This document shows, one piece after another, positions 2,284-32,000 of a stretch of DNA of 32,000 bases; positions within the stretch are counted from its first letter, which is position 1, and every line of letters begins with the position of its first letter. Position numbers and translations under genes: made by a program. Below the pieces are notes generated by a model. It did no database searches. It had not been told where the DNA came from and saw only the letters and a program-made list of their open reading frames with translations. Origin of the DNA: Candidatus Nanopusillus sp. Lineage in GTDB: Archaea; Nanobdellota; Nanobdellia; Nanobdellales; Nanobdellaceae. The stretch spans positions 95,582 to 127,581 of the forward strand of contig JAWDOO010000001.1 of NCBI GenBank assembly GCA_046533775.1, read 5' to 3'.

Positions 2284-2320
2284 ATTAAATTTTATATTGT
2301 TATATCTTTAAAAAATATTT

Positions 2321-3496: not shown

Positions 3497-4663
3497 TTTT
3501 TCTACAGAATTTTTCCAAGATAAATTTTTTATATCATCTAAACATAATTTTATTTCATATTCTCCCAATTTTGGATAAGATAACAATGCCAATATATAAT
3601 CTGCCATTTTATTTACATCCCAAAAATCAACTGCCAATGCATTTTTTAATACTTCATATACACCTGTTTGTTTTGATATTATAATAAAATCTTTATATTT
3701 TAAAGCTTCAAATGGTGTTAAACCAAAAGGTTCTGATATAGATGGTAAAACAAATATATCTGCTATTGAATATAAATATTCTGCTAAATCATCATCAACC
3801 CATCCTGTAAATATTACATTTTTTGATATATTTAAATCTGCAGCCATTTTTATTAATTGTTCCAACATTTCTCCAGTTCCTGCAAATATAAATAATACAT
3901 CTTTTCTTTTTTCCAAAACTTTTTTAGCTGCTTTTAATAAATAATCCGGACCCTTATGCATTGTCATTCTTCCAAGATATAATACTATTTTATATTTTTC
4001 TTTTATTTTACTATTTATTTTTTCTCTTATATTAAAATCATCATCTGGAGCATTATATATTACATCAATCTTCTTTTCATCGCAATTATAATATTTTATC
4101 AATATATCCTTTTCTCTTTTACTTACTACAATAATCTTATCTGCATATTTACAAGCTTCCAACTCTATTCCATAATCATAATCATATAAATATTTTAATA
4201 TATCTGGGTTCCCTCCAACTCTATCATATACTAAAGAATGAAAATGAACAACCAGTGGTTTTTTGTATATTTTCTTTATTTCTATACCTGCTAAAGCAGT
4301 TAACCAATCATATGCATATATAATATCAAAATCTAATTTCATTTTTTTCAATATATCTAATATTTTATCTTTATATTCAATTACCGCTTTTTTATAGTCT
4401 ATAATTTTTCTTTTATATAATGTAAAAGATTCATATTTAAAATAATCTATATATGATTGATATACTTTCATATTTAATCCGAAGATTTTTGAATTCTTTA
4501 ATTTATCATTCCAAAAGGTTTTTACATCATCGGTCAAGTTTAAAATAAATAAATAAACATTGTTATTAAAATAATCAAGATACTTTAAATAATAATATGT
4601 TACTTTTTCTAATCCACCACCTTTTTGAGGAAACACTCCCCATGATAAAAACAGTATTTTCAT
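3467..4663 (-). CDS. glgA: GT-B glycosyltransferase, archaeal GT5 glycogen synthase-like
   Basis: MKILFLSWGVFPQKGGGLEKV carries the KxGGL motif of GT5 glycogen/starch synthases. The C-terminal SEPFGLTPFEALKY is the GT-B Ex7E-type motif. The 3' end overlaps the GH57 gene by 30 nt (convergent). Confidence 0.7.
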   Translation of the reverse strand: MKILFLSWGVFPQKGGGLEKVTYYYLKYLDYFNNNVYLFILNLTDDVKTFWNDKLKNSKIFGLNMKVYQSYIDYFKYESFTLYKRKIIDYKKAVIEYKDKILDILKKMKLDFDIIYAYDWLTALAGIEIKKIYKKPLVVHFHSLVYDRVGGNPDILKYLYDYDYGIELEACKYADKIIVVSKREKDILIKYYNCDEKKIDVIYNAPDDDFNIREKINSKIKEKYKIVLYLGRMTMHKGPDYLLKAAKKVLEKRKDVLFIFAGTGEMLEQLIKMAADLNISKNVIFTGWVDDDLAEYLYSIADIFVLPSISEPFGLTPFEALKYKDFIIISKQTGVYEVLKNALAVDFWDVNKMADYILALLSYPKLGEYEIKLCLDDIKNLSWKNSVEKLISIFNSLV

Positions 4664-4672
4664 AATTAAAAG

Positions 4673-6319
4673 ATGAATATAAATAATTATAAATCTTTTA
4701 ACAAAAATATTTGTATGGAAAAAGAAATTGAATTAGAAAATTTTGATTATGCCATTATAAATAATAAGGGTTCCTTTTTGTTTTTACCTTTACTATATAA
4801 CAGTAGATATTTTGGTTTATTACAATATCATAATAACAATTTTATCAAAATAATAGAAAAAATAGAAAATAGGGATATAAATTATAATGAAATTGAAAAG
4901 ATAATATTAAAAGATTATAATGATTTAAAAATAATTTATAAAAATGGATGGGAAGAATATAAATTAATAGATAATAAATTAATATATAAGACAAATAAAT
5001 ACTCTACATTGAATGTTTATTTTGATATAAGATATTTATATGATATAGATGAATGGGGAAGGATATATAATAATGAAAAAAATAAGGATTATGTAAAAAT
5101 AAAATTTAATAAAGGTGATTTAAAATATGAAGTAATAATAAAAGGATTTGAAGTTTATCAAGAATTAAATAAATGGATAAAGGTAAATTACAATTATGAT
5201 TTATATAGAAAATCCCCTCCATTTGAAAGATATATATATTTACCATTTTCTTTTTATGCAAAAGAATTAGAAATAATATATAAAAATGATAAGGAAAATT
5301 TAAATGGAAAAAATTTAATTGAAAATAGGTTATTATCTTTTATTTATGATAATAATATCTCTGCAGGTTTTCCATGGTATTTTCAGGAATGGAGTAGAGA
5401 TATATTAATTTCATTAAAAGGATTATATTATATTAATAAAGATATTGTAAAAAATAAGTTAATTGAATATTCAGATTATTTTTTATTAGATGGAAGATTA
5501 AAAAATATAAAAAATGAAAATGTTGGAAATTCTGATGGGATTGGATTATATATTTTTAGATTATTTCAATTTAAAGATTTATTTGAAAAAGAAATATTTG
5601 ACAAATTAATAAATAATATAATTGAAAAAATAAAATTATTTGAAGAAAATTATTTAGATGAAAAATTATTTTTATTTAAAGCATATCCAAATGAAACATG
5701 GATGGATACATTAAATAGAATTTATCCAATAGAAATACAATTCTTAATGGCAAATGCATATGATAATTTATATAATTATACAAAGAAAGATGAATATAAA
5801 GAAAAATTGGAGAAAATAAGGAATTCAATTAGAAAGAATTATTTATCAGATTATTCTTTATATGATGATATAAAAAATAAAAAGATAAGATGTAATGTAT
5901 TTTTATCATATTATTTTTATCCAAAGGTTTTTTCAAATTATGAGTGGGAAAATATTTTTGATTATTCATTAACTCATTTATATCTAAAATGGGGAGGAAT
6001 TAGTAGTTTATCTATATTTGATAAAGAATTTATTCCATATAGTAATGAGGATAATTATTTTAAAAATGAAGGAAAGTCAATGCATAATGGAGATTCATGG
6101 ATTTTTATAAATAACATTGCTGCTATTGATTTATATAATTTAAATAAGGAAAAATATGGAAATATAATAAATAGTATTATAAAATCTAATGAAAGATTGA
6201 TAAAAATGATAGGAACATTACCAGAAAGATCTAGTGCATATGAATTAAAACCAGCAGGAGCTCTACATCAATTATGGTCAATATCAACTTATATAGAATT
6301 ATTAAATAATATAAAATAG
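4673..6319 (+). CDS. Glycogen debranching enzyme / amylo-alpha-1,6-glucosidase (GDE_C-type, archaeal)
   Basis: GFPWYFQEWSRDILISLKGL resembles the PWF..WGRD..ISLxGL motif of archaeal GDE_C proteins, and a C-terminal HNGDSW lies in an (alpha/alpha)6-like region. The true start may be the second ATG at 4715 (MEKEIELENF), which would leave a 51-nt divergent promoter region instead of 9 nt. Confidence 0.7.
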   Translation: MNINNYKSFNKNICMEKEIELENFDYAIINNKGSFLFLPLLYNSRYFGLLQYHNNNFIKIIEKIENRDINYNEIEKIILKDYNDLKIIYKNGWEEYKLIDNKLIYKTNKYSTLNVYFDIRYLYDIDEWGRIYNNEKNKDYVKIKFNKGDLKYEVIIKGFEVYQELNKWIKVNYNYDLYRKSPPFERYIYLPFSFYAKELEIIYKNDKENLNGKNLIENRLLSFIYDNNISAGFPWYFQEWSRDILISLKGLYYINKDIVKNKLIEYSDYFLLDGRLKNIKNENVGNSDGIGLYIFRLFQFKDLFEKEIFDKLINNIIEKIKLFEENYLDEKLFLFKAYPNETWMDTLNRIYPIEIQFLMANAYDNLYNYTKKDEYKEKLEKIRNSIRKNYLSDYSLYDDIKNKKIRCNVFLSYYFYPKVFSNYEWENIFDYSLTHLYLKWGGISSLSIFDKEFIPYSNEDNYFKNEGKSMHNGDSWIFINNIAAIDLYNLNKEKYGNIINSIIKSNERLIKMIGTLPERSSAYELKPAGALHQLWSISTYIELLNNIK

Positions 6320-8103: not shown

Positions 8104-10380
8104 TTAATATAAAATAAATATTATTACTCCAACTATTCCTCCAATTAATAATCCAATATTTAAATAATTATATTGAATTTTTTTATTGAATTGTATAACG
8201 ATATTTAAAGGCTGATTTACAATATAATTGTATCCATTTTCATAATAAATTGTATTATAAAAGAATCCTGGATAAATATATTTTGAAGGTAAAATATTTA
8301 TTATAGTTCCACTATTTAAAAAGATAGAAACATTTCCATAATTATTTATAGAATTATTTATAGAAACATTTACTAAGAATGGTGTATTAATATTTACTAG
8401 ATATTGATATATACAATAATTAGACAAATTAATACTTATTGGAGAAGTTATATTTATTGTTATATTATTTTGATTGCAATATAATCTTTCCTGATTATTT
8501 ATATAATTAATTGAATTTATTAATATTATAATATTGTTATTTGCATTTATATAAAAACTATTATTTCCAGAATATGTATTATTATTTATTGTATAATTAA
8601 ATGGGAAAGATATATTTAATTGATATTGTAAATAGCAATAATTTGATAGATTAATAATTTCTGAACTATTTATATTTAATGTTATATTATTTGGACAATA
8701 ATATTGATAATTTCCAAAATTATATGCTTGATTTAAGTAAATATTCAATAAATTATTTGCATAAAGGTAATATATATTATTATAGTATGTTTCATTTAAA
8801 TAATTTCCAGAAATTGTAAAATTTATTCCAATGCTATCATTTATAGCAACTAAATAATATTCTGTATAGTTTGCAGAAATATTATAATTGTTATTTACTA
8901 ACAAACCTATATTTATATATTGTTGGGAATAATTAATATTATAACTTTCTCCATTTATTGTTAAATTATTTAGTAAATATAATGTATTGTTTTGGTAAAT
9001 ATATATTGGGATATTTATATTAAAAACTGTTCCAAATGGATATTGATAATTTATATATGAATTATTGTAAGAATAATAAATTGATATATTATAATTTAAA
9101 GTATTTGTACTTCCCAAATATTCTGGATAAAAAGGACCTTCAGATAAATTTACAAATCCTTGTGATATTATATTTTCATTAATATTTGATGAATATTCTG
9201 CTGTATTAAAACCATAATTAAATATTGAAGGATCTGGAGTAAGATATTGATTATTATATAAATAATATAAACCCAAATAACCATTAATATTATTTATATC
9301 TATACAAGTTCCATATCCAGGTCCTCCAATAACTAATTCTAAATCTTCCATATTATTGGAACCAGTAAGAGATGGAGAAATAACTATATTTCCATTTGAT
9401 GGAATTAATAGTGTAACATTATCATACCAATATATATTTTGTCCATCTAAACTATATCCAAATTGTATTTCTGGATAAGAATTATTTTGAGTAACATTAA
9501 TTATTAAATATACATTTAATGGATATTGCAAATTAGAATAATTTGTTTCATATACATAAAAATATTTATTATAATAATTACTTACTATTCCATTTCCTTC
9601 AATTAAATTATTTGATAAATAAGAATTTGAAGAAGTAAAATTCCATATATTATCAGCAAATTCATAATATCCGCCAGTATTATTTATTAATAAAACATTT
9701 TGTAACCAATAATATTGACCATTACTTAATTCTAAGATTGCATTTAATTGTATAGAGCCAGAATTTTCACCTATAAAATTATTAGAACATAAAGGATCAA
9801 CATATGAACTAAAACTATTTAAATAAATATCCCCAACAACTTCATCTGTTGTAATATTATATCCATAAATATTTCCATTACTAATATATATACCGTAATC
9901 AGAAATTCCTATTGGAAAATAAATATTATTTATTACTTGATTTGTTAAAATGTATGTAAAATAATAATATGCATTCTGTGTATTATTATTATAAATTACT
10001 ATATAATAATTTCCGGAAGATAAAAATATACTTTGATTTATATAATTTGTATATGTATTATAAATTGAAGTAAAATTACTACCATTTTGAAAATTTTGAT
10101 AATTTTGTTGATTCATTATATAAAAATTTAAAGGAATTGATGAATTGAAATATATATTTAAATATTGATTTGATGAATTTATTGGATAAGAAAAATAATA
10201 TCCCGAATATAAAATATAAAAATCACCGTAAGATCCTTGTCCCAAATTATATAGATTTAATTGATTTATATTTATAGAATTTACTGGAATATTAAACAAT
10301 GTTGATGAATAATTTTGTGAGTATGTATTAAAAAAATTAAATATTAGAATTAATAATGTAAATAGTTTTAATTTATTCAT
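8104..10380 (-). CDS. Thermopsin-like (peptidase A5 family) surface protein with signal peptide, C-terminal Cys-containing tandem repeats and a C-terminal TM anchor
   Basis: Signal peptide MNKLKLFTLLILIFNFFNTYSQ. The central region PIGISDYGIY...ITTDEVVG...SIQLNAILELSNGQYYWLQNV...FADNIWNFTS...LELVIGGPGYG...GLYYLYNNQYLTPDPSIFNYGFNTAE aligns by eye with Sulfolobus thermopsin (PAGIASFGLY, ATLQFNIVL, YAYWLQDV, FIDNVWNLTG, AELVWGGGGNG, GLYYISNG, YTFGADTAE). There are many N-x-S/T sequons, and the C-terminus is NIGLLIGGIVGVIIFILY. Confidence 0.7.
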   Translation of the reverse strand: MNKLKLFTLLILIFNFFNTYSQNYSSTLFNIPVNSININQLNLYNLGQGSYGDFYILYSGYYFSYPINSSNQYLNIYFNSSIPLNFYIMNQQNYQNFQNGSNFTSIYNTYTNYINQSIFLSSGNYYIVIYNNNTQNAYYYFTYILTNQVINNIYFPIGISDYGIYISNGNIYGYNITTDEVVGDIYLNSFSSYVDPLCSNNFIGENSGSIQLNAILELSNGQYYWLQNVLLINNTGGYYEFADNIWNFTSSNSYLSNNLIEGNGIVSNYYNKYFYVYETNYSNLQYPLNVYLIINVTQNNSYPEIQFGYSLDGQNIYWYDNVTLLIPSNGNIVISPSLTGSNNMEDLELVIGGPGYGTCIDINNINGYLGLYYLYNNQYLTPDPSIFNYGFNTAEYSSNINENIISQGFVNLSEGPFYPEYLGSTNTLNYNISIYYSYNNSYINYQYPFGTVFNINIPIYIYQNNTLYLLNNLTINGESYNINYSQQYINIGLLVNNNYNISANYTEYYLVAINDSIGINFTISGNYLNETYYNNIYYLYANNLLNIYLNQAYNFGNYQYYCPNNITLNINSSEIINLSNYCYLQYQLNISFPFNYTINNNTYSGNNSFYINANNNIIILINSINYINNQERLYCNQNNITINITSPISINLSNYCIYQYLVNINTPFLVNVSINNSINNYGNVSIFLNSGTIINILPSKYIYPGFFYNTIYYENGYNYIVNQPLNIVIQFNKKIQYNYLNIGLLIGGIVGVIIFILY

Positions 10381-13493: not shown

Positions 13494-14621
13494 TTAACTA
13501 ATATAAATTGAAGGCATTATATCATTGGGTGGCAATGATCTTAATAAAACCCAATATAAGTATATATTATTACCTGATAGCTGCTGTGCTATTGTTATAG
13601 GCAAACTAAATGTACCAGGTATTGTTGTAGTACTTAATATTTGAGTATAATTCACTAAAAAATAAGTATAATTACTAGAAAATCCAATTTCATATATTGT
13701 TGGAACATAATTATATGTTATACTTCCTACATTAGAAGTTCCTACATATAAATAAAATTGACCTGAATTTCCTGAATTAGTATATGAAAATGCAGCACCA
13801 TCATTATTTCCTCGAACAGCAACTAAAAGTCCACCATAATAGCAATAATAATCATTTCCGTCTGGTGGAGTTGTTCCACCTGCTCCTAAAACTATATAGT
13901 CCCAACCAGTACGATTAGTAATTGGAACAGAAGCATAGATTTCTAATATATCATTTTGCATAGTAAGGTTTACTGTAGTAGTAAGACCATCATTATAAAG
14001 TGAAGTAGGAGATGGAATAATTGTATAATTTGTAGAAAAAGAAACATTATACTGATCATAACAATCATATGCCCAATTTGGGGGTAATGAACTCAAACCT
14101 CCAAAGTTTTGATAATAATTAAATACATCTTGTCCATTATCGTATTGAGAAGTACCTAAAACTTGTATAGGTGCACCAACATATGGATAAAATTGTGAAT
14201 AAAAATCAGCACTACTATTTCCTATATACATATATATTGTTACATTTGAATTAGCAGGTATCTCATTTGGTAAATTTACCCACCATACATCACATGTTAC
14301 CCCATTATAATTTAATGGACCTTCATACCACGAATAATAAAATAATTGATTATTATTTGGATTAAAGAACATTACATTTGATCCATTTGGATTTATTTTA
14401 TTAAATAATGTTACATTATTAATATAAGCAAAGTTATTACCAATATTTATACTTCCATTACATATTGCAATATCTTGTTGAAATGGTGATGGAGTAGGAA
14501 TATTTTGATTATTATATATTATTATTGGATAACTACTAATATTAAAATTATATATTATATTAAATTTATTATTATTTAATATATTATAATTATAACTTAT
14601 TCCATTAAATACAAAATTCAT
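13494..14621 (-). CDS. Secreted N/Y/T-rich protein, probable LamG/concanavalin-like (DUF2341-like) domain; downstream segment of a frameshift-interrupted gene
   Basis: The C-terminal NNIYLYWVLLRSLPPNDIMPS resembles the terminal strand motif of archaeal DUF2341/LamG-like surface proteins (..DWvrvR.yppn..mPs). The reading frame stays open upstream of the first Met, at least to ~15023, and encodes YFGSLKLSTNNLVNQQ... Confidence 0.6.
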   Translation of the reverse strand: MNFVFNGISYNYNILNNNKFNIIYNFNISSYPIIIYNNQNIPTPSPFQQDIAICNGSINIGNNFAYINNVTLFNKINPNGSNVMFFNPNNNQLFYYSWYEGPLNYNGVTCDVWWVNLPNEIPANSNVTIYMYIGNSSADFYSQFYPYVGAPIQVLGTSQYDNGQDVFNYYQNFGGLSSLPPNWAYDCYDQYNVSFSTNYTIIPSPTSLYNDGLTTTVNLTMQNDILEIYASVPITNRTGWDYIVLGAGGTTPPDGNDYYCYYGGLLVAVRGNNDGAAFSYTNSGNSGQFYLYVGTSNVGSITYNYVPTIYEIGFSSNYTYFLVNYTQILSTTTIPGTFSLPITIAQQLSGNNIYLYWVLLRSLPPNDIMPSIYIS

Positions 14622-21984: not shown

Positions 21985-22581
21985 ATGGATGAATTTAATA
22001 AATTAAAAATATATCATATGAAAAAACTTGAGGAAGCTAAGGAAAAATATTTAGCAGACCAACCTATATATTATATTCTAGATTTTATTAATTCATTAGA
22101 TTTCTTTTTTACAACATCTTCATGTGCTGGTAGAATAATTTTATTAAAAATACCAAAAAGTGGGAAAAAATTTGAGGCAGAATTTCTATTTAAATCTCAT
22201 TATTATGTAAATTTTTATTATATATGGAATAAATTATTAGAAGTATATAAAAATTATGATGAGAAAATATACTTTAAACAAGAACCATTTATTTTACATG
22301 TATCTTCAAAAAATATAGAAAGAGCATATGAACTATTGAATATTGCAAGAAAATCTGGATTCAAACATTCTGGAATATTTTTGATAAATGATAAAAGGGT
22401 AATGGTTGAAATTGTTGGAAATGAAAAAATTGAAACAATTGTATCAAAAAATAGAAAATTATTAATAGATAAAGAATATTTTTATAATTTAGTAAAAGAG
22501 GCAAATGAGAAATTAAAGAATGTAAGAAAAAGAATAGATATATTTTATAAAAATCTTCTATCCTATTATATTACAATATGA
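21985..22581 (+). CDS. taw3: tRNA wyosine-derivative methyltransferase Taw3/TYW3
   Basis: FTTSSCAGRIILL (the SSCxGRI signature of TYW3), FKQEPFILHV and GFKHSG. The size, ~200 aa, is as in archaeal Taw3. Confidence 0.8.
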   Translation: MDEFNKLKIYHMKKLEEAKEKYLADQPIYYILDFINSLDFFFTTSSCAGRIILLKIPKSGKKFEAEFLFKSHYYVNFYYIWNKLLEVYKNYDEKIYFKQEPFILHVSSKNIERAYELLNIARKSGFKHSGIFLINDKRVMVEIVGNEKIETIVSKNRKLLIDKEYFYNLVKEANEKLKNVRKRIDIFYKNLLSYYITI

Positions 22582-24066
22582 ATTATAGCAATAATTATTC
22601 ATTGTTTCATCATTTATTTTTACAAATTCATATAAATAATAATTGTATGTAAATTGATTACCTTGACTACCCATAATTGCTTCTGCAGAAATACATGTAG
22701 CATTAAAATAATAATAACCATTTTCTTCATAACATGCAGAGCTAATATGACATGAAGGTGGAATTAATAAATGATTGTACCAAAAATTACATGCAGAGGG
22801 ATTTTCATATGGCCCAACTGCAACTATTTCTTCATCTAAAGAGCAACTTACATTATTATAATTTATCTGAATATCTACAGGTATTAAACCTGGATAGTAT
22901 CCATCAGTATAATATGTATAATTTTCTAAAACGTTTTCTACAAAATTTTTATCAACCCCTATATCTTCTCCATAACTAATATAATTAATAATATTTACAC
23001 TACTTATATTATAAAAATATATAGTGGATATAGGTGTTTCGCTTAATATTTTATAGTTAGATAAAGCACTATTATTATATAAACATTCTTGCATATATTG
23101 AATATATGTACTATTTACTATACATTGATTATTTACAATCTGTCCAATTGATTCACATGGTATTACAATTGTTACATTTGTAATATTTGGATATTCTACT
23201 GGTAAAAGTTGAGATGTATATAGATCTAGAAGATAATAATATGGATTATTAAATGATAAATTTAAATATAAATTGTCTCCAATTGTTTCATTAGAATATG
23301 CATTTTGATATAAATATATATAATTTGATTGATTTGTTAAATTGTAATATATAAATTGAAATGTTTGATTATATAAATAATCTATTAATTCATTATAATA
23401 TAATAAAAATGGATATATTGAATAAGTTATTTGATTATCTAATTGAGGAAAAGATAAACTTCTATTATATTTATTTAATACAAAGAAAGAATATTGCGGA
23501 TTTGATAATACAAAACTATTTTCAGAAATATCATAATAAAAATCCTGATATGAAAAATTTGCATGTTTAAAATTTAAATTTGCATTTAAATATTCAATTT
23601 CATTGTTTAAATTTTGATTTACAATATTTCCAATATTAGAAAATATATTTTCCATATTTGGATAGTTATTATTATTTATATTATTTAAAGGAAATATTGG
23701 AACACATAATGAATAATTTACATCATAATTATTTCCGTTATTTTCTACACTTTCTACATTAAATAAAAAAGGAATTTCACATTGAGAATAATAATCTGGA
23801 GCATTATTTCCAAATACATAATTTATATTATACGTAGATCCTGAAAAAATATTTGTTAAAAGATTATTTAATAAATTATATCTAATATCAAATGGAATAT
23901 AAACAAATAATATATATAAAAATCCCTGATATGCAATATAATCTTCACTTAAATATCTTAAAGATTGAGTTGAAAGCTGAAGCTGAGAATTTAAATAATA
24001 TATACCAAAGATAGTTAAAATTATTACTCCTAAGAATAATGCTATTGGTGCTAAAGACGTTTTCAT
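22558..24066 (-). CDS. Large secreted/anchored N/Y-rich, Cys-rich protein with N-terminal hydrophobic (pilin-like/signal-anchor) helix; last gene of the surface operon
   Basis: MKTSLAPIALFLGVIILTIFGIYYL, followed by ~475 aa with many N-x-S/T sequons and more than 10 Cys. I recognise no family. The 3' end overlaps taw3 by 24 nt (convergent). Confidence 0.7.
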   Translation of the reverse strand: MKTSLAPIALFLGVIILTIFGIYYLNSQLQLSTQSLRYLSEDYIAYQGFLYILFVYIPFDIRYNLLNNLLTNIFSGSTYNINYVFGNNAPDYYSQCEIPFLFNVESVENNGNNYDVNYSLCVPIFPLNNINNNNYPNMENIFSNIGNIVNQNLNNEIEYLNANLNFKHANFSYQDFYYDISENSFVLSNPQYSFFVLNKYNRSLSFPQLDNQITYSIYPFLLYYNELIDYLYNQTFQFIYYNLTNQSNYIYLYQNAYSNETIGDNLYLNLSFNNPYYYLLDLYTSQLLPVEYPNITNVTIVIPCESIGQIVNNQCIVNSTYIQYMQECLYNNSALSNYKILSETPISTIYFYNISSVNIINYISYGEDIGVDKNFVENVLENYTYYTDGYYPGLIPVDIQINYNNVSCSLDEEIVAVGPYENPSACNFWYNHLLIPPSCHISSACYEENGYYYFNATCISAEAIMGSQGNQFTYNYYLYEFVKINDETMNNYCYNSYCNIIG

Positions 24067-24097
24067 ATAAATTCAATAAATTTTAAAATTATTAACT

Positions 24098-24604
24098 TTA
24101 ATTTGTAATAAAAGTTATATAACTACTATAATTTACATAAAAGTTATATAATACTGTTGGTGGACAAACATAAAATGTATATAATATACCATCTAAATAA
24201 ACATAATAATTTATATATTCTTTATTTGGACATACACCAATGATTGTATTATTATTAAAATAAAATGATAAAATTGTAGCAGAATTGTTTAAATAATATA
24301 ATTCTTCATTTGCCAATTCATTTATTATATAATTATCTAATGCTGTATTATTATTAAATCCTGCGTATATATCTATTACAGGTATAGTTACATTATCAAA
24401 ATAGATTAAAGAATCTAAAAAGCCATTTGCAGATTTATATTCAATACCAACAGTATTTAAACTTGCAATATTATTTAATGTTGGATTTCCATATGAAAAT
24501 ACATTAAATAAAAATATAAATAGTAGGGCTATAACAATAATTACTGCAGCAAGAAATGATAAAAAGAAGCCAATTTGTATCCTCATTATTGAGTAATTTG
24601 ACAT
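24098..24604 (-). CDS. Small secreted/anchored protein with N-terminal hydrophobic helix (surface operon)
   Basis: MSNYSIMRIQIGFFLSFLAAVIIVIALLFIFLF. The alternative start at M7 (ATG at 24586, MRIQIGFF...) gives a TAATG 1-nt overlap with the upstream gene instead of 19 nt. Confidence 0.65.
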   Translation of the reverse strand: MSNYSIMRIQIGFFLSFLAAVIIVIALLFIFLFNVFSYGNPTLNNIASLNTVGIEYKSANGFLDSLIYFDNVTIPVIDIYAGFNNNTALDNYIINELANEELYYLNNSATILSFYFNNNTIIGVCPNKEYINYYVYLDGILYTFYVCPPTVLYNFYVNYSSYITFITN

Positions 24605-25440
24605 GAAGATATATTTATTTGGCCTCCAGCAATTATATTACATGTTTCATTATATATTCCATTCATATAAAGATTTCCTACACCATATAAAGATACTATT
24701 ATTGGTTCTCCACTATCATATTCTGGTAAAGTAATATAATATGATGTTATTGGTTGAATATATACTTCATTATAATCTATTGTTCCTCCACTTGCAATAG
24801 TAGTAAGTATTTTATTAAGATATTCATCAATATTTATAAATTTATAGTTTTGATACATATATTCTGTCTCGTTATATATATATAAACTATAATTATAGAA
24901 ATAATTGATTAAGAATTGGTTTAAAGATGGTAAATTTTCATATGTATAACTTACATTATAAATATTATATGCAACATAATATGGATTAATATTTATATTA
25001 TCTTCAAAAGCAAGTCCATATGGATCATAAGAATATGAATAACTTATATTGTTGATATCATAGAAGAAGAAATATATATAATCGTCATAAGAAAAATTTA
25101 GATAAGTATATATAGCTTTATTTGATTGATTTGATTCATTAATAAGATAATAAAATGTTCCTGATATATTCATAAAACATTGTTGATATATATTATTATA
25201 TTCATTAATAATATTCATATTAGGAGCATAAAATAATAATAATGGATTTCCTGTATTTTCATATAAACAATAATTTAATCTATCAATTAATAAACTATCT
25301 GTAAATTGCTGATATGAATATTCAGAATATGATTCAACATTAAATAATGCATATAATATTGCTATAACAAAAAATACAAATATTATAATAACCGCAGCAG
25401 CTATATATTCAATTATATCTTTTAGAGATAATGATCTCAT
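24586..25440 (-). CDS. Secreted/anchored protein with class III-like signal (surface operon)
   Basis: MRSLSLKDIIEYIAAAVIIIFVFFVIAILYALF has a short basic N-region and an acidic residue before the hydrophobic helix, reminiscent of the QxSxExxxL / Flp IEY-type pilin N-termini. The ectodomain is N/Y-rich. It has a 4-nt overlap with the upstream gene. Confidence 0.7.
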   Translation of the reverse strand: MRSLSLKDIIEYIAAAVIIIFVFFVIAILYALFNVESYSEYSYQQFTDSLLIDRLNYCLYENTGNPLLLFYAPNMNIINEYNNIYQQCFMNISGTFYYLINESNQSNKAIYTYLNFSYDDYIYFFFYDINNISYSYSYDPYGLAFEDNININPYYVAYNIYNVSYTYENLPSLNQFLINYFYNYSLYIYNETEYMYQNYKFINIDEYLNKILTTIASGGTIDYNEVYIQPITSYYITLPEYDSGEPIIVSLYGVGNLYMNGIYNETCNIIAGGQINISSCQITQ

Positions 25441-26558
25441 GGTGATATAGAAGGTAATATTGATACATTTAAATATGGGCCTCCAGATTGTACACCTACC
25501 TTAGATAAAATAATAAACTCTGGAAATACTTGATTACCATTATTATCTACATTTCCCAATTCTAGTTTAAATATATGATCCTGTGAGGTATCTGATGAAT
25601 TATAAATGTATTGAAAGTTTGGATTACATAAATACTGAATATCATTATATTGACCATAACATCCATCATAAAATGTAAAATTTGGATTATAATATATTGA
25701 CAATGTTAAATATGATTGATATACTGTATATTCTCCATTTGGAAATATACCAAGAATACTACCTTGACTCATAAATTTATTATAATAACAACTAGCATAT
25801 GGATTTGATGTATCTTGCCAGTATTGAAATAAAGTAATCGCTGAAGAAAATGCTAAATTAAATGCAAAACCAGCTGCAAAATCAAATGGAGGCGGTAAAA
25901 CTTCATCTAATATCATATCTCCAACTTGCATTATAGTAAATTCTACAGTAGACCATAGAGCAGGTCCTACTGAAGATTGTAATGCATTAAATATATCACC
26001 AAAAAAATTATTATTTCCATATGCATATTGTAAAAGTGCAGATTGATATGTATATAATCCATATGTACCAACAGCATTTATTGCTGTTAGTTTTGCAATT
26101 GATGGCAAAGATTTATATATATCATTTAAAGCGTCCAATATCCCTCCTGTAGCACCGAAATTCTTAAGTCCAGGTAAATATGAAAATACTTCAGTCATAA
26201 AAGAAGTTAATGCATCATCTGCAAGTTGTTGCCATAGATTATTTACATAACATATTCCAATACTAACTAAAAAATTATTATTATTATATAAGGGAATAAA
26301 CAGAGCATATGAATTTATTGGAGGAATTATCCTAAATTCATAGAAAAATGTTGGAGCAGTTGTTACTAAAAATGCTGCCTCCATATTTCCAGGTTCTGAT
26401 GTTGAATATGTAATAAAACCAGCAACTTCTAATATTAAATAAGGATTATGTGTACCAAATATTCTTGTAATAATATATGGAAAATATATTCCTATTAATG
26501 ATACGATTATTAAAAATATTGATGCTATTATTGCATCTAATAATTCATCTATATCCAT
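25437..26558 (-). CDS. Probable polytopic membrane protein (373 aa) of the surface operon
   Basis: MDIDELLDAIIASIFLIIVSLIGIYFPYII is followed by several more hydrophobic or G/A-rich segments (AAFLVTTAPTFFY, FGATGGILDAL, LTAINAVGTYGLY, FDFAAGFAFNLAFSSAITLF). There is a 1-nt gap to the upstream gene. Confidence 0.7.
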   Translation of the reverse strand: MDIDELLDAIIASIFLIIVSLIGIYFPYIITRIFGTHNPYLILEVAGFITYSTSEPGNMEAAFLVTTAPTFFYEFRIIPPINSYALFIPLYNNNNFLVSIGICYVNNLWQQLADDALTSFMTEVFSYLPGLKNFGATGGILDALNDIYKSLPSIAKLTAINAVGTYGLYTYQSALLQYAYGNNNFFGDIFNALQSSVGPALWSTVEFTIMQVGDMILDEVLPPPFDFAAGFAFNLAFSSAITLFQYWQDTSNPYASCYYNKFMSQGSILGIFPNGEYTVYQSYLTLSIYYNPNFTFYDGCYGQYNDIQYLCNPNFQYIYNSSDTSQDHIFKLELGNVDNNGNQVFPEFIILSKVGVQSGGPYLNVSILPSISP

Positions 26559-26559
26559 A

Positions 26560-27492
26560 TTATGTAGAAACAGTCTCTCCTATGTATATATTAATATTTG
26601 CTGTTCCGCTCTGGTTACTTACATATATATACATCACTGTTGGTGGTAAAGAACCTGCAAAATATAATAATGGAAAGTTCATTTGGAAGGTTTGAATGAG
26701 AGAAGTAAATGTTTCAGAACTTATTATTTCACCTACAATATTACTAAGAGTTATTTGAGGATTCAATGGAAATCCTGATAATTCTACACAATCTGATGGA
26801 TTATATGGCAAATTGTTATTATTTGTATTTGGATTTGGAGCACAAGATATACTACCATTTTCTTGATATGTATTACCATTTTCATTAATTGTTGATGTAA
26901 ATGTACATCCATTACTATCACAACTTATTGTCGTATCATTTAATATAGTAAGAAACATCGATTCTGTTGATGGAAAGAAACTATCTATTATATTTATAAT
27001 AATTTGAAGATCACCTAAGTTCTCGTTATTAGAATATGCTAATAAACCAGCATCATCATTTAATCCTTGTATGCTTATATTTATTTGATTTATATTACTA
27101 TTTAATGATTCTTGTTTTACTAATTTACAAAATGCTAATGCTGGTGCAAATATAAAAGTATTTCCATTATCAGTTGTAGAGACATTCCAATATACTATTT
27201 TAACAGATAAGAGATCTACAACCTGATTAGGAGGAAGGCAATGATATAATTGCAAATACCATCCATTATTATATGTCAATACAAAAACATAATTATAGTC
27301 ATAATTACTTATAAATACAGATCCATTACTTCCGCTATTTATATCATTAGCAATTGAATTTAAATATCCTGTATATTCTAATTCATTCCCCAAAGCAAGT
27401 CCAATAAATGCCATAATAATAAAGTATATTAAAACTGCCAATACAATTAATACTATTATATCAAAAATTATTCTAAGAAAATCACCTTTCAT
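26560..27492 (-). CDS. Secreted/anchored protein with N-terminal hydrophobic helix (surface operon)
   Basis: MKGDFLRIIFDIIVLIVLAVLIYFIIMAFIGLAL, then a Cys-containing N/S/T-rich ectodomain. There is a 1-nt gap to the upstream small ORF. Confidence 0.7.
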   Translation of the reverse strand: MKGDFLRIIFDIIVLIVLAVLIYFIIMAFIGLALGNELEYTGYLNSIANDINSGSNGSVFISNYDYNYVFVLTYNNGWYLQLYHCLPPNQVVDLLSVKIVYWNVSTTDNGNTFIFAPALAFCKLVKQESLNSNINQINISIQGLNDDAGLLAYSNNENLGDLQIIINIIDSFFPSTESMFLTILNDTTISCDSNGCTFTSTINENGNTYQENGSISCAPNPNTNNNNLPYNPSDCVELSGFPLNPQITLSNIVGEIISSETFTSLIQTFQMNFPLLYFAGSLPPTVMYIYVSNQSGTANINIYIGETVST

Positions 27493-27493
27493 A

Positions 27494-27652
27494 TTATCCT
27501 AATCCAGATTGATTTAATATATTATATCCTACACTTGTTACATTTGCCTGCATGGAGTTACTTACTATATAATAATAAAATATTATTGCTAAAATAATTA
27601 TTACTATTGCAATAATTAAAAATATTAAAAAATTTATTGCATTATCAGCCAT
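27494..27652 (-). CDS. Unannotated small single-TM protein (52 aa) of the surface operon
   Basis: Below the ORF-track size cutoff. Manual translation gives MADNAINFLIFLIIAIVIIILAIIFYYYIVSNSMQANVTSVGYNILNQSGLG-stop. Its ATG overlaps the upstream gene's stop by 8 nt (ATGGCTGA), and its stop is 1 nt before the next ATG. Confidence 0.6.
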   Translation of the reverse strand: MADNAINFLIFLIIAIVIIILAIIFYYYIVSNSMQANVTSVGYNILNQSGLG

Positions 27653-27827
27653 AGTTATTACTATTTATACTATTTACAACATTTGTGCCATTTGTTTGAG
27701 GTATACTATTAAATAAATTTACTCCACCTTTAAAATAAAAGTACATAATTATTACTAACAATACTAGACCAACTATAAATAATATTATTGCTATTAAAAA
27801 TGTATTTACTTGTGTTTTTTTATCCAT
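27645..27827 (-). CDS. Small single-TM protein (60 aa) of the surface operon
   Basis: MDKKTQVNTFLIAIILFIVGLVLLVIIMYFYFKGG... A GGAGG Shine-Dalgarno-like element lies 3 nt upstream of the ATG. It has 8-nt overlaps at both ends with the flanking small ORFs. Confidence 0.65.
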   Translation of the reverse strand: MDKKTQVNTFLIAIILFIVGLVLLVIIMYFYFKGGVNLFNSIPQTNGTNVVNSINSNNYG

Positions 27828-27966
27828 TTCCTCCTATTAATTGATATTGAGCAAATATATTTATATTTAGCCCTATTTTTGGTCCAAATACAACAAAAAT
27901 AAGTATTAATATTAATACAATAAATATTAATGCAAGAATTATCTTTAAAAGTTCTCCAGTTTCCAT
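27820..27966 (-). CDS. Unannotated small single-TM protein (48 aa) of the surface operon
   Basis: Below the ORF-track cutoff. Manual translation gives METGELLKIILALIFIVLILILIFVVFGPKIGLNINIFAQYQLIGGNG-stop. Its stop overlaps the next ATG by 8 nt (ATGGATAA). Confidence 0.55.
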   Translation of the reverse strand: METGELLKIILALIFIVLILILIFVVFGPKIGLNINIFAQYQLIGGNG

Positions 27967-27996
27967 TATAAATCTAAAAACTTTGCAATTTATAAA

Positions 27997-29268
27997 TTAA
28001 CTTTCACCTACAACTGATGTTAATAAAATTACTCTATTTCCTCCTTCATATGTATACTCAATTATTATACCATTTGGATATCCTATTTCACCTACATTTG
28101 GAATAATTGTAACTTGATTTGGTGCAGGTGTAGGATTATCTGAAGTTGAACTTAATTCATTAGTATTACCACTTTGATCTACTTCATATGAATTTACTAA
28201 TAATTTATTATATACATTTGTTGAATATTGAGGATTTGATGTCAGTGACGAAAACTCTTCAGGACCTAAAACTTGACTTAAAACCTGACAAGCCATATTA
28301 TTATTACTACTTGCTATTACATTATCTCCATACATAACTTCTAATGGAACTTGATTATAATATTCCATCATTTCTAACATACATAAAACATCATTTAATG
28401 TAACACTATAATCACTATTATAGTCAAATAATAATAGCACATATTCATTATGATTTCCCGATATAGTTACACTCTGTCCCAATGTTTCTCCATATGTATA
28501 AAATAAATATTTTGCAATTAAATATGTTGCATATAAATTTTGACATTGTGATGATGTCGGATTACTACAATATCCTTCTTGTGTTATATTATTTGCAAAT
28601 GTTTCATTTAAATCGTTAAGCATTTCATTTACTTGAGATTCACTAATCTCACTTAAATTCACCGCTACTACACCTTCTGGAACTAAATAATATAAAATTG
28701 GTGCTTGCATTGTATGTGCTAAATTATTTAAGAAATATGATGCAAGATCTAAACTAAGTGTTCCAGCTACTAGACCTATACCAAAAGGATTTAAAAATAC
28801 TGTTTTATATGCATTTCCAACACCGGACGCAATATCATCTATTGGAGCACTTCCATCATCAAGATCTTTAAATATCATATTAAGAGTACCCACATCTTCT
28901 TTGTTAATTCCGTAATCCTCTAAAAATTGTACATTCTCATCATAATTTGCTTTAAGTCCAGTAGCTACACCAATAATGGTTGCAGCAACAACAACTCCTA
29001 ATAATACATCATTTGCAATTGTTGCAGCATCAGATATTCCCTGTGCTACTGGATTTATCATAAAACTTATACTCCCTGCTAATGCATATCCAAATTTTGC
29101 TTCTGGTCTACCAGCATAACTAAGACCTTTTAATACATTGAAGAAAACCAATATTATAAATATTATAATAATAATTGCAATAATAAGTTCTATTACACTA
29201 TCACTTATAGATTTCATATCATTTATAAAAATCTTGGATTTTATTAATTTTTTATAATAAATTTTCAA
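27997..29268 (-). CDS. Membrane protein (423 aa), first gene of the surface operon: class III-like N-terminus, extra hydrophobic G/A-rich segments, large ectodomain
   Basis: The internal Met at 29217 gives MKSISDSVIELIIAIIIIIFIILVFFNVL, which resembles the MKSISPIIA pilin-like N-terminus at 15019. Further hydrophobic segments are LLGVVVAATIIGVATGL and FGIGLVAGTLSLDLASYFL. The C-terminal part is S/T/N/P-rich. Confidence 0.7.
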   Translation of the reverse strand: MKIYYKKLIKSKIFINDMKSISDSVIELIIAIIIIIFIILVFFNVLKGLSYAGRPEAKFGYALAGSISFMINPVAQGISDAATIANDVLLGVVVAATIIGVATGLKANYDENVQFLEDYGINKEDVGTLNMIFKDLDDGSAPIDDIASGVGNAYKTVFLNPFGIGLVAGTLSLDLASYFLNNLAHTMQAPILYYLVPEGVVAVNLSEISESQVNEMLNDLNETFANNITQEGYCSNPTSSQCQNLYATYLIAKYLFYTYGETLGQSVTISGNHNEYVLLLFDYNSDYSVTLNDVLCMLEMMEYYNQVPLEVMYGDNVIASSNNNMACQVLSQVLGPEEFSSLTSNPQYSTNVYNKLLVNSYEVDQSGNTNELSSTSDNPTPAPNQVTIIPNVGEIGYPNGIIIEYTYEGGNRVILLTSVVGES

Positions 29269-29336
29269 TATTATAATACTTAAAAAATTATATAAAAAAT
29301 TAAAGTAATAGTTATATTTTTATATTATCTTTGATA

Positions 29337-29919
29337 ATGTTGGATACAGAAATTATAGCACAAACAAATTTAAATGATCAACAATATACAAATACATCGA
29401 TAGTATAGTTTGTTTATATTTATTATACAGAATCAATATCAAGGTATTATCCATAAATTGTAATCAAAATTTGACGTTTAATTTACTAATATACCAAAGT
29501 GCATTTCCAATATTATGGAATAATGAATATGTTACAATTGATGGAGACCTGATTTATTAAGTATATTTTATTGGAATGATACAGAATTACAATCAATTGT
29601 TAATTATATAGCTCAATTTACAATAATTCTAAAAGCAACGATTTTGAATAATAATCTTTATTTAGCATGGTTTGGATTAAATAATATTTCAAATGGACAA
29701 GGTTCAATATATATGGCAATAACATCATTATCTTATCAAATAAGTCAATATACTAATAAAACAACGACTAATAATACTATAAATAATACTTCTAATACAT
29801 CTTTATATAGCTTAATACCGGATACAAATACTAAATTCAATAAATCTTTATTTAGTTCAATACCAACTTAGGTTATTACAATAATAGTTGGTATTGTAAT
29901 GTTTATTATTTTATATTAG
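29337..29919 (+). pseudogene. Decayed surface-protein gene: coding-like sequence in three frames plus an in-frame TAG, ending in a C-terminal TM anchor
   Basis: The manually translated pieces are:
- MLDTEIIAQTNLNDQQYTNTSIV-stop (frame of 29337).
- ...NLTFNLLIYQSAFPILWNNEYVTIDGDLIY-stop (frame open 29378-29560).
- ...IFYWNDTELQSIVNYIAQFTIILKATILNNNLYLAWFGLNNISNGQG...SSIPT-TAG-VITIIVGIVMFIILY-stop (frame open from 29542; includes track ORF 29644-29871).
The tail resembles the anchor of the thermopsin-like protein (IGGIVGVIIFILY). Confidence 0.4.
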
Positions 29920-30030
29920 CTTTTTAGATTGAGAAATTAAAAATATTTATAAAATTTTTATGAAAAAGTTTATTTATTTAATAATTATGAAGATAATTAT
30001 CTTTTTAAAATTTTATTAAAAGTATATTAT

Positions 30031-31035
30031 ATGAAACTATTTGGGGGTTTAGATAGAATTTTAAAGACAATAGAGGATAACGTAAAAGGTAGTTTTGAAA
30101 AAATTAAAGATGAGGCTAATGGATCTATAAAATATTTAGATGAAAGATTAAGAGAAATAGGAAATAAAATATCGGAATATAAACCAATAATAGGAGGTGC
30201 AGCAATAGCAGCATTACCACTTTATGCAAAAGTTCCAATTTTGGCAGGATTACAAATAGAAAATTTATATAAAGGTCCTGGAGGCAAAATTCTAAAATAT
30301 GTATTAATAGGAGGTAGTGCTATCACTCTTGTAGGATTAGGTGTAATGCTTGGATTAAATGCTATACATTCTTTACCTTCAAATAATGAACATATACAAT
30401 ATTTAGGTAATGGATATGAAGGATTTGTACCAAATGGTCAAACAATAAATTATGATGGAAATACAGATCCTGAAGGTGAGTTAATATTAAATAATGGAAC
30501 TACAATGCAAAATGTAATATGGAATGGACAATATGCAAGTACAATAATACAAAATCATAACCAAATAGTTCAATTGAATAATCAATTTGTTGGACAAACT
30601 GATCCAATAAATAATCAACCATATGTACCTTTACAGGATGTCTATATAATTAAAGGTCAAGTACCTGTTGAACAGGTAACAATAAATGGACAAACATATT
30701 ATGTAATAGAAGCTAATAATATAAACCCCGCAGACATTGCAGGATTCTATACATATCAAGGATGGGTATCTAACTTTGTAGCCGCAATGAATACACCAGG
30801 AACATATGCAGCAGGATTACCAGGAAACTCACCAGTATTCCAATGGACAAATACAACAGGAACAGTAGTATACCAAACACAACTATACGAAGGATATGGA
30901 GTTGGGGGAGGATCAAGAGAGGTACTAATAGAACTTAACGGAACCATAATTCCATATGGAGTAACTTATAGTCCTCTTGGCTCAGCCCTATTTAATTTCA
31001 CTACTCCGCAACAAACATATAATCCTTCTAGCTAA
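30031..31035 (+). CDS. Membrane protein: N-terminal charged helical segment, two TM helices, Q/N/T/G-rich C-terminal ectodomain
   Basis: MKLFGGLDRILKTIEDNVKGSFEKIKDEANGSIKYLDERLREIGNKISEY, then the hydrophobic IIGGAAIAALPLYAKVPILAGL and VLIGGSAITLVGLGVMLGLNAI, then ~220 aa of polar beta-rich-looking sequence. I recognise no family. Confidence 0.65.
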   Translation: MKLFGGLDRILKTIEDNVKGSFEKIKDEANGSIKYLDERLREIGNKISEYKPIIGGAAIAALPLYAKVPILAGLQIENLYKGPGGKILKYVLIGGSAITLVGLGVMLGLNAIHSLPSNNEHIQYLGNGYEGFVPNGQTINYDGNTDPEGELILNNGTTMQNVIWNGQYASTIIQNHNQIVQLNNQFVGQTDPINNQPYVPLQDVYIIKGQVPVEQVTINGQTYYVIEANNINPADIAGFYTYQGWVSNFVAAMNTPGTYAAGLPGNSPVFQWTNTTGTVVYQTQLYEGYGVGGGSREVLIELNGTIIPYGVTYSPLGSALFNFTTPQQTYNPSS

Positions 31036-31053: not shown

Positions 31054-32000
31054 TTATGATACACTCGCAACATAAGGAACTCCATAAGTAACTATAACCC
31101 AATCTAAATACATATATCCAGATCCACCTCCTGAGCCTGCTGAAATGAACAAATAAGGATTTCCATTATAATAATTTTCATTATCTTGCAAGGGACCTAT
31201 AGTAATACTATTACCTAGATTACTTCCTTGACCATTATATTCTTCATCATATCCAAAAGTTCCATTTACAAAGTTACTATTTACATCAATATAAGTAAAA
31301 TAGCTATAATGATTTAGAGCCACTTGATAATTTGCAGTAAAATCTTGTGTTTCTTGATTAAACGCTGTATTATATGCATTTATATATGATTGTGCAAATA
31401 TTGGTTCTCCATTTATTGTAGATGCTGGTGGATTTGGTGGTATTACAGATTCATTACATGTAGTTTGGGGAGCACATTCCCAAATATAATGTTCTGTAGT
31501 AGAAGCAAGTGAATAATTAAATATATTACCATTCATTAAGAAATATATATTCATATTACCACCTCCTGCTTGGAACCAATTATATAACCAAAATAATCCA
31601 TATTGAGAATATGGTTGCCTAAAGAATTGATTTTGTTGTTGATCTAGTGGCATAAAAGCATAATAGTTTGATCCTGAATATCCACTTGGACTTCCAGTAT
31701 TATCTTCTAAGAAATAATAATTGTTTGAACCACCACCTGATGATCCTGAATAATAATAATCATAATATCCATTAGAACACAAAAGAGAGTTATCATAAGT
31801 TTGACATTCAACTTGAGGATTTACTTGAGTAGTTAGAAAATATCCCAATCCTTTTGTATTATTATCTTCCAATATCCCAACATAATAACCTGAAGAAACA
31901 CCAGGACCCGGACTTAGATCAGGTGCCCATCCATATTCATACATAAATATTGGAAAGCCAGAAGGTAAATAAGTATCACCTCCAACACTTATTCCTATAT
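31054..32000 (-). CDS. Secreted G/Y/N-rich protein, LamG/DUF2341-like C-terminus; N-terminus lies beyond the window edge
   Basis: The track ORF starts at M31944, but the frame stays open to position 32000 (upstream codons read IGISVGGDTYLPSGFPIF-M). The C-terminal GSGYMYLDWVIVTYGVPYV resembles the terminal motif of the 13494 protein (IYLYWVLLRSLPPNDIMPS). Confidence 0.6.
   Translation of the reverse strand, partial: IGISVGGDTYLPSGFPIFMYEYGWAPDLSPGPGVSSGYYVGILEDNNTKGLGYFLTTQVNPQVECQTYDNSLLCSNGYYDYYYSGSSGGGSNNYYFLEDNTGSPSGYSGSNYYAFMPLDQQQNQFFRQPYSQYGLFWLYNWFQAGGGNMNIYFLMNGNIFNYSLASTTEHYIWECAPQTTCNESVIPPNPPASTINGEPIFAQSYINAYNTAFNQETQDFTANYQVALNHYSYFTYIDVNSNFVNGTFGYDEEYNGQGSNLGNSITIGPLQDNENYYNGNPYLFISAGSGGGSGYMYLDWVIVTYGVPYVASVS

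Follow-up and report, generated by a model that had tools for sequence, protein, structure and literature searches.

The DNA analysed here is a 32,000-nucleotide stretch, called the window throughout, from a metagenome-assembled genome (MAG) of Candidatus Nanopusillus, and the subject of this work is a block of nine minus-strand open reading frames (ORFs), g1 to g9, at positions 22558-29217. The product of g1 is 100% identical to RXQ68_00730 in GenBank. The window has a GC content of about 22% and also carries housekeeping genes (AlaRS, DnaG, FBP aldolase/phosphatase, TYW3 and glycogen enzymes) and four tRNAs, and an Rfam scan of the window returned these tRNAs and nothing else. The block is a real, conserved and uncharacterised surface-assembly operon of thermoacidophilic nanoarchaeotes, and it probably encodes the subunits of one co-assembling extracellular structure that is rooted in the membrane. 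The nine genes are listed below in the order of the operon, with lengths in amino acids (aa) and with a slash at candidate processing sites.

27997..29217, minus strand: g1, 406 aa; N-terminus MKS/ISDSVIEL, then a hydrophobic helix
27820..27966, minus strand: g2, 48 aa; acidic tip METGELLK, one hydrophobic helix, 20-aa tail
27645..27827, minus strand: g3, 60 aa; N-terminus KKT/QV, then a helix
27494..27652, minus strand: g4, 52 aa; N-terminus of the M(K/R)S/DNAINFLIF type, then a helix; tail with a conserved N-V-T sequon
26560..27492, minus strand: g5, 310 aa; N-terminus MKG/DFLRIIFDII; ectodomain with 6 Cys
25437..26558, minus strand: g6, 373 aa; acidic tip (MDIDELLDAIIASIF)
24586..25440, minus strand: g7, 284 aa; near-invariant N-terminus MR[SAG]/LSLKDIIEYI; 4 invariant Cys
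24098..24586, minus strand: g8, 162 aa; start MRIQIGFFLS, of which QIGFFLS is invariant; 2 invariant Cys (CPPT motif)
22558..24066, minus strand: g9, 502 aa; N-terminus MKT/SLAP, then a helix; the largest ectodomain

An earlier reading made from the letters alone (the sequence-only reading) had described nine consecutive minus-strand genes whose products begin with a polar tip and a hydrophobic helix, in a reduced and probably host-dependent archaeon. Both descriptions hold, with the starts of two genes corrected. Each product has one strongly hydrophobic N-terminal segment after a short polar tip (Kyte-Doolittle 19-mer maxima 2.5-3.9), and the source is a Nanopusillus nanoarchaeote. The g1 gene starts at the ATG at 29217 (MKSISDSV...), not at the TTG at 29268, in agreement with the 406-aa GenBank product and with all orthologues. 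The g8 gene starts at 24586 (MRIQIGFF...), as in all orthologues, and overlaps the g7 stop by 1 nucleotide (nt). From g1 to g9 the junctions measure +30, -8, -8, +1, +1, -4, -1 and +31 nt, and the stop/start overlaps suggest that the nine genes may be co-translated in a fixed stoichiometry. Proteins with a single transmembrane (TM) segment are encoded by about one in five of the genes listed in the published table for Nanopusillus acidilobi. Nine such genes in succession have an expectation of about 1e-6 per position, and they are kept together across genera, so the run reflects more than chance. At the downstream border, the 3' ends of TYW3 (plus strand) and g9 (minus strand) converge and overlap by 24 nt (22558-22581), which leaves no space for a separate terminator.

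The same nine genes, in the same order and with similar sizes and similarly tight junctions, occur in N. acidilobi (Nps_00225-00255, with g2 and g4 unannotated), in Nanobsidianus stetteri (Nst1_039-047), in Nanobdella aerobiophila MJ1 (locus L017; g1 is MJ1_0042), in YN1 (loci L001/L018; g1 is YN1_3840 and g7 is YN1_3900) and in several MAGs. Protein identity to YN1 ranges from 29% (g5) to 74% (g2). The gene-for-gene synteny extends over at least four genera, and the block is kept in diverged form in four more distant nanoarchaeotes (L020, L021, L022 and L024); in all, 24 related loci were examined, which collapse to fewer distinct places. Outside this group the genes are rare. A g1 profile run against 1.84 billion representative proteins retrieved only 29 clusters, whose named members are all Nanopusillaceae-type archaea except for one MAG labelled Aenigmatarchaeota, and none of these clusters has a named homologue from Nanoarchaeum equitans, whose genome itself was not scanned. 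The 49 homologues of g9 all belong to Nanopusillus or Nanobsidianus. The block is a lineage-specific operon of thermoacidophilic nanoarchaeotes (Nanopusillaceae/Nanobdellaceae).

The diverged copies also show how the block behaves as a unit. In L024 it lies behind AlaRS, while TYW3, a 157-aa protein, DnaG and FBPase stay together elsewhere, which indicates that the block moves as a whole. The synteny across relatives and this en bloc move bear out the proposal that the nine genes form one unit. We considered the 157-aa TM protein adjoining TYW3 as a tenth member and rejected it, because a move of the block leaves it behind with TYW3 and DnaG. At L023:10001-11092, NurA and CysRS flank a distant homologue of g1 (363 aa, profile E 7e-17) without the other block genes, so that g1 can exist without g2-g9 in some lineages. 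In four lineages g3 and g4 are a single ORF of 108-118 aa with two hydrophobic helices, equivalent to window positions 27494-27827:

L020:5544-5888, fused g3-g4
L021:11326-11682, fused g3-g4
L022:6598-6936, fused g3-g4
L024:11265-11591, fused g3-g4

This fusion suggests that the products of g3 and g4 work together physically. In the fused proteins a basic cluster and a small residue precede the second helix (RRMKRS/D, KKHKRA/D), and both tails are K/R-poor with a conserved sequon and look extracellular, which is at odds with a plain hairpin topology. Directly upstream of g1, L020-L022 have two or three additional small genes whose products have class-III-looking N-termini (for example KKA/ISLPINIII, KRS/VSLPIEL and KRG/FSFIHII), and L024 has one 54-aa gene there (MRKA/VSTDVII).

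The composition of the nine proteins points outside the cell. Lysine and arginine (K+R) make up 0-5% of their residues, compared with 12-18% in cytoplasmic proteins encoded elsewhere in the window; at 0.9%, the surface protease of the thermopsin family that the window also encodes resembles the block proteins. Their Cys counts are even, conserved Cys columns are present in the alignments of g1 and g5-g9, and the sequon density reaches 1.9-3.5 per 100 aa in g5, g7, g8 and g9. Low K+R content, even and conserved Cys and sequons together suggest that the protein bodies are extracellular and exposed to acid. A VKOR gene lies near the block in N. acidilobi and YN1. The sequence-only reading had spoken of ectodomains that are rich in asparagine and tyrosine (N/Y), contain Cys and are dense in sequons. 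The Cys and the sequons stand and are joined by the K/R depletion, which is specific to the block and other extracellular proteins, whereas the N/Y richness stems partly from the low GC content of the genome.

Several members carry distinctive features beyond the N-terminal helix. In g1 an invariant YxGRxxAKxxYxLxG stretch follows this helix in the orthologue alignments, a second hydrophobic segment spans residues 64-91 (2.15) and a weaker third one residues 138-165 (1.5), both rich in glycine and alanine (G/A), and the C-terminal alpha/beta domain carries 4 invariant Cys. The AlphaFold2 (AF2) model of g1 has a pLDDT of 74.9, exceeding 90 in places in the C-terminal domain. Weaker G/A-rich hydrophobic stretches and an invariant Y.TS.PG motif past the helix are found in g6, and hydropathy thus agrees with the earlier remark that two of the proteins have extra segments of this kind. 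The AF2 model of g7 (pLDDT 65.6, moderate) predicts a long N-terminal helix at residues 6-63, followed by beta-sheets, an outline that could recall a pilin, whose long N-terminal helix packs on an antiparallel beta-sheet. The g3 tail has a conserved GG.NLF motif and an NGT sequon, g5 conserves a basic...acidic pair in the first helix turns, and g9 contains 12 Cys and 16 sequons. For g2, an assignment to DUF7554 was rejected, since the match scored 18.8 bits against a cut-off of 25 and was found only in close relatives (4/11 members).

The N-termini are the parts of these proteins under the strongest constraint. Residues 1-14 form the most conserved segment in g2, g4, g5, g7 and g8, and residues 1-60 are more conserved than the remainder in every large member. 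Near-invariant strings occur in g7 (LSLKDIIEYI), g8 (QIGFFLS), g9 (SLAP), g6 (ELLxxIIASIF) and g5 (FLRIIFDII), and charged residues are conserved in the first helix turns. Such conservation argues that the N-termini are not disposable Sec signals, and cleaved signal peptides of the Sec type were rejected on this ground, as predicted from the sequences, in which the N-terminal 14-60 residues are the best conserved. In hhalign comparisons between the families, similarity is confined to the N-terminal helix (g5 and g7 align only over the N-terminal 47 residues), and no paralogy among the block families was found beyond it. A similarity limited in this way is also typical of pilins.

In class III signals, K/R at -2 and G/A (or S) at -1 directly precede a hydrophobic helix of about 20 residues. 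A loose [KR][GAST] site is present in g1 (8/8 orthologues), g3 (8/8), g5 (7/8), g7 (7/7) and g9 (6/7), and is infrequent or absent in g4 (3/8), g8 (1/7), g2 (0/8) and g6 (0/8). This loose pattern is not very informative, since it can occur in any signal anchor. A comparably short leader (MRRA/AF) is found in a nanoarchaeal protein of the archaellin type. The claim that the block proteins carry pilin-like signals therefore survives in part: the loose site speaks for it in g1, g3, g5, g7 and g9, while g2, g6 and g8, the rarity of the strict core and the lack of pilin family or fold matches speak against it, as detailed below.

When the nine proteins, the neighbouring proteins and the small upstream genes of related loci were compared with Pfam, NCBIfam and PHROGs, only transmembrane noise below threshold appeared, and sequence profile searches of the PDB with g1, g5, g6, g7, g8 and g9 found no relatives. 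No domain of an ATPase, platform, peptidase or enzyme was found in the nine products. In the published N. acidilobi table the orthologues stand as uncharacterised proteins with one or two TM segments and no arCOG, and no mention of the locus tags of the block was found in the literature searched. The impression that no characterised system can be recognised here was therefore well founded, for the nine proteins by sequence and for g1 and g7 by fold.

The block may bear on a structure that has recently been seen in the same organisms. Three electron cryotomography (cryo-ET) papers of 2024-2026, including Gaisin et al., described an attachment organelle in YN1, N. aerobiophila and YN4. It comprises a cone, made of repeating densities, on the outside of the symbiont's membrane, where it replaces the S-layer, a portal of about 22-25 nm, a barrier, and a filament or tube of 6.6-8.2 nm that passes through the portal and reaches hundreds of nanometres into the host. 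The cone is about 220 nm wide, needing thousands of copies of its repeating monomer, and all three papers state that the organelle proteins are unknown. YN1 and N. aerobiophila, both with a documented organelle, carry the complete block, which is necessary and far from sufficient for a role in it. The earlier suggestion of a candidate attachment or bridge structure fits this literature through a circumstantial link, and we regard it as tentative, leaning to improbable, that the block is part of the organelle. The survey of N. aerobiophila surface proteins covered only proteins in which signal peptides can be detected and does not mention MJ1_0042-0050, and the known S-layer candidates are other genes (MJ1_0160, MJ1_0707, YN1_5000, YN1_2560 and Nps_00760). 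A comparison with the nanotube of Micrarchaeota was set aside, because that structure is host-made and belongs to a different phylum.

Since the proteins fall in no known pilin family, we describe the block by how it may work rather than by family. It is possible, though we would not call it probable, that it works like a type IV filament, as a fibre or tip complex built through the N-terminal helices and served by ATPase/platform pairs encoded elsewhere. The subunits would join through their N-terminal helices, as in type IV filaments. The small products of g2-g4 (48-60 aa) would form a thin shaft or core, and g1 and g5-g9 would play the part of minor pilins, priming or capping the shaft and bearing host-binding ectodomains. 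A FlaI/VirB11-type ATPase and a TadC-like platform, one of the pairs dispersed over other parts of these fragmented genomes, would power the polymerisation of the subunits and their extraction from the membrane. The most attractive product would be the filament or tube of 7-8 nm that runs through the organelle portal into the host; the alternative would be an adhesive pilus.

Machinery of this kind is annotated in trans. The sequence-only reading had recognised no assembly genes, which is correct in cis, for the window and the 24 loci, and does not extend to the genome of N. acidilobi. Its published annotation contains five FlaI/VirB11-type ATPases (four of arCOG01817 and one of arCOG01818), at least two TadC-like platforms (arCOG01814, twice) and two archaellins. 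Jarett et al. reported two type IV pilus (T4P) systems and an archaellum, with four FlaJ/TadC homologues, and Makarova et al. (2016) described a nanoarchaeal ATPase clade for which they were unable to identify cognate pilins. It is thus possible that the block products are assembled by machinery encoded in trans. A prepilin peptidase of the PibD/FlaK/EppA kind was found neither in the window nor adjoining the block in the 24 loci, and Makarova et al. noted two nanoarchaea without a recognised one. According to published annotation and the literature, archaellins and archaella are nonetheless present in nanoarchaeotes.

A number of observations weigh against a type IV-like filament. No pilin, archaellin, Flp, TadE or class III signal family matched the nine proteins or the upstream small genes at E<=1, and Foldseek searches of the PDB with the models of g1 and g7, the latter only moderately confident, gave nothing at E<=0.001 and no pilin or pseudopilin. 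In all 8 orthologues g2 and g6 lack a basic residue before the helix, the -1 residue of g8 is I, N or F in most orthologues, and a stricter FlaFind-type core occurs in at most 3 of the 7-8 orthologues of any family. The extra hydrophobic helices of g1 are unlike a pilin, and the fused two-helix g3-g4 protein does not sit easily with two ordinary N-in pilins. Neither a secretion ATPase (T2SSE-type) nor a platform protein (T2SSF-type) is encoded in the window or next to the block in the 24 loci, and no prepilin peptidase is annotated in N. acidilobi (neither arCOG02298 nor arCOG02300) or in Nst1. The 'tube' of Gaisin et al. has a lumen, unlike a type IV filament. Runs of single-TM 'uncharacterized' genes flank the N. 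acidilobi TadC-like gene Nps_00520 and the ATPase genes Nps_01175 and Nps_02250 (Nps_00490-00525, Nps_01165-01185 and Nps_02245-02265, all outside the window). These runs may be further unrecognised pilin sets, and their position beside ATPase and platform genes weakens the case for the block as 'the' missing pilins. Finally, shotgun proteomics of N. acidilobi detected no product of the seven annotated orthologues. This is weak evidence, as the trypsin-based study covered only a third of the proteome and K/R-poor membrane proteins are nearly invisible to trypsin methods, which would explain why the block proteins were missed.

Two genes upstream of g1 are possibly associated with the block:

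30031..31035, plus strand: divergent gene for a 334-aa protein with two TM segments, whose N-terminus is charged and cytoplasmic and whose C-terminal domain is K/R-poor
31054..32000, minus strand: C-terminal third of a protein of about 800 aa with an N-terminal hydrophobic helix; runs off the window

The product of the ORF at 31054-32000 is 56% identical to that of an 847-aa ORF of N. acidilobi and 37-44% identical to YN1_778. The gene for the ~800-aa protein (L003:4870-7598 in N. acidilobi and L001:6337-8858 in YN1) follows, in both organisms, a gene for a 62-aa single-helix protein and the VKOR gene, upstream of g1 and on the same strand. The divergent 334-aa gene adjoins g1 in N. acidilobi and YN1 and is absent from this position in more distant lineages; in the window, N. 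acidilobi and YN1 the two-TM gene separates g1 from the upstream same-strand pair. In N. acidilobi the 847-aa ORF has been called only as a 181-aa C-terminal fragment, and the divergent ORF, of 313 aa there, is uncalled. The 813 bp between g1 and the 334-aa gene (29218-30030) contain no convincing gene, which is unusually long for a compact genome; they hold only a low-complexity, N/T-rich plus-strand ORF (29644-29871) and gave no Rfam match.

Other features of the window lie farther from the block. At 8104-10380 on the minus strand lies the gene for a thermopsin-family protease of 758 aa (Pfam 3e-57), which has a signal-like segment at its N-terminus, a C-terminal TM anchor and 5 sequons per 100 aa; Kato et al. 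speculated that its homologues in N. aerobiophila degrade the host S-layer. The minus-strand gene at 13494-14621 encodes a 375-aa, K/R-poor and N/Y-rich protein with a near-threshold match to DUF2341 (22.9 against 23.4 bits), and a weak match to the same family is present in a 500-aa gene upstream of g1 in L020. Positions 1310-6319 contain a gene for a ParA/MinD-type ATPase and a glycogen cluster (GH57, glycosyltransferase, debranching enzyme), in synteny with Nps_00360-00380 of N. acidilobi.

Different interpretations of the same genes have to be set beside the filament. The block proteins might not be type IV subunits at all, and together with the upstream pair encoding the 62-aa and ~800-aa proteins they might be the structural kit of the organelle, and thus a new machine for bridging species; we consider this doubtful. 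In such a kit the portal, the barrier and the tube entering the cytoplasm of the host would be put together from single-helix subunits joined by their N-terminal helices, and g1 and g6 would use their G/A-rich helices to enter or remodel the host membrane. The main rival of the filament, somewhat unlikely in itself, is a static, membrane-embedded hetero-oligomeric complex of the envelope, made of uncleaved type II signal-anchor subunits bundled within the membrane of the symbiont and involving no ATPase-driven extraction, whose ectodomains would form the cone layers, a portal collar or the 'barrier' and to which g1 and g6 would add membrane or pore-like helices. The coupling of the nine genes suggests near-equal amounts of their products, as would be expected of a defined complex more than of a filament dominated by one subunit, although a cone of about 220 nm predicts one very highly expressed gene and not nine equimolar ones. 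The repetitive densities of the cone, which take the place of the S-layer outside the symbiont membrane, agree with such a complex. That g2 and g6 lack class III features, that g1 has two or three hydrophobic helices, that no pilin family or fold was matched and that no peptidase is annotated would all follow naturally from such a complex. The extreme conservation of the first 10-14 residues and the charges at the start of the helix are, however, unusual for plain anchors. The fused g3-g4 protein can be quoted on either side, since it resembles a two-helix membrane hairpin, but both of its tails look extracellular, which a simple hairpin cannot give.

The products could also be lineage-specific surface glycoproteins with a general role in the envelope, such as anchoring or biogenesis of the S-layer or protection at low pH, and no specific part in host contact. 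The circumstantial nature of the link to the contact site, the composition shared with the thermopsin-like protease and the 375-aa secreted-looking protein of the window, and the position of the block among the housekeeping genes for DnaG, TYW3, FBPase and AlaRS are in keeping with this role. Nevertheless, the known S-layer candidates are different genes, the fact that genomes of 0.6-0.8 Mb have retained nine coupled genes speaks for a dedicated machine, and the identified carriers are all of the Nanopusillaceae type, the three cultivated ones being obligate ectosymbionts; a general envelope role is therefore quite unlikely. That the block was left by an integrated virus or mobile element and encodes membrane or virion proteins is extremely improbable. 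Many small hydrophobic proteins without homologues, and the weak, non-significant matches of the tiny proteins to viral membrane protein families, might suggest such an origin. Against it, the GC content of the block equals that of its surroundings and its chromosomal position between housekeeping genes is fixed across genera. Moreover, there is no PHROG match with a meaningful E-value, the g1 model has no Foldseek match in BFVD at E<=0.001, a scan of 2.9 million viral contigs found no relatives of the block, and no integrase, repeats or tRNA junction was noted at its borders in the ORF list and tRNA scan.

How the DPANN ectosymbionts, including the nanoarchaeotes, breach the S-layer and membrane of their hosts to obtain lipids, nucleotides and ATP is a long-standing question. 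For two imaged strains the block provides a short and concrete list of candidates for the organelle proteins. Should it encode only an unusual pilus, its products would come into question as the 'missing pilins' that belong to the orphan secretion ATPases of nanoarchaea, and would widen the sequence space of type IV subunits.

Comparison with known systems places the block near several of them and within none. The tripartite alpha-pore-forming toxins (AhlB/SmhB) have long helical hairpins with a hydrophobic, G/A-rich head, and segments of this sort could enter a target membrane. The Foldseek matches of the g1 model to AhlB/SmhB, though among its top ones, are non-significant and at chance level (E 0.7-4, probability <=0.12, TM-score 0.13-0.16), so that they offer only a lead for a possible contact of g1 or g6 with the host membrane. 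The attachment organelle is found in organisms that carry the block (YN1, N. aerobiophila), is made by the symbiont and rooted at its membrane, and its 6.6-8.2 nm filament would be compatible with a glycosylated, thin helical fibre. It differs in having been seen by cryo-ET as a tube or a sheathed filament, while the block is known from genes alone, and in that its cone needs a highly abundant repeating monomer.

Flp/Tad pili and the archaeal Epd-like pili are built from tiny subunits of 43-63 aa with little beyond a hydrophobic helix and a short tail, much like the small members of the block, and in Flp/Tad systems larger TadE/F/G-like companions with N-terminal helices accompany them. The N-terminus of g7, M-R-[SAG]-[LF]-[SG]-L-K-D-I-[IV]-E-Y, contains the I-E-Y triplet of the Flp motif, and EY is found in no other member. 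The Flp motif, G/XXXXEY, places Gly at -1 and E at +5. Relative to the [KR][SAG]/LSLKD site of g7, the EY occupies +8/+9 and no Gly is in register, and the residue five before EY is L, not G; the earlier identification of this triplet as Flp-type is therefore not supported. The block also differs in that no TadV, TadA, TadB or TadC genes lie near it.

The closest parallels are the minor-pilin and pseudopilin operons, such as bacterial fimU-pilVWXY1E, the gspG-K genes of the type II secretion system (T2SS) and the comG operon, and the archaeal Epd pilin sets. The block stands apart from them in that it has no sequence or fold match to any pilin family, in that two of its nine proteins have acidic leaders without a basic residue, in the fusion of g3 and g4 to a two-helix protein in some lineages, in the extra hydrophobic helices of g1, and in that a peptidase is not recognised in the nanoarchaeal genomes that carry it. 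It resembles them in its organisation as several tightly packed genes, which in these operons are co-transcribed, and in products that share only a short leader and an N-terminal helix and otherwise have unrelated globular domains of very different sizes. The large members have disulfide-bonded putative adhesin modules, charged residues stand in the first turns of the helix and, as with the block, the assembly genes may lie elsewhere in the genome.

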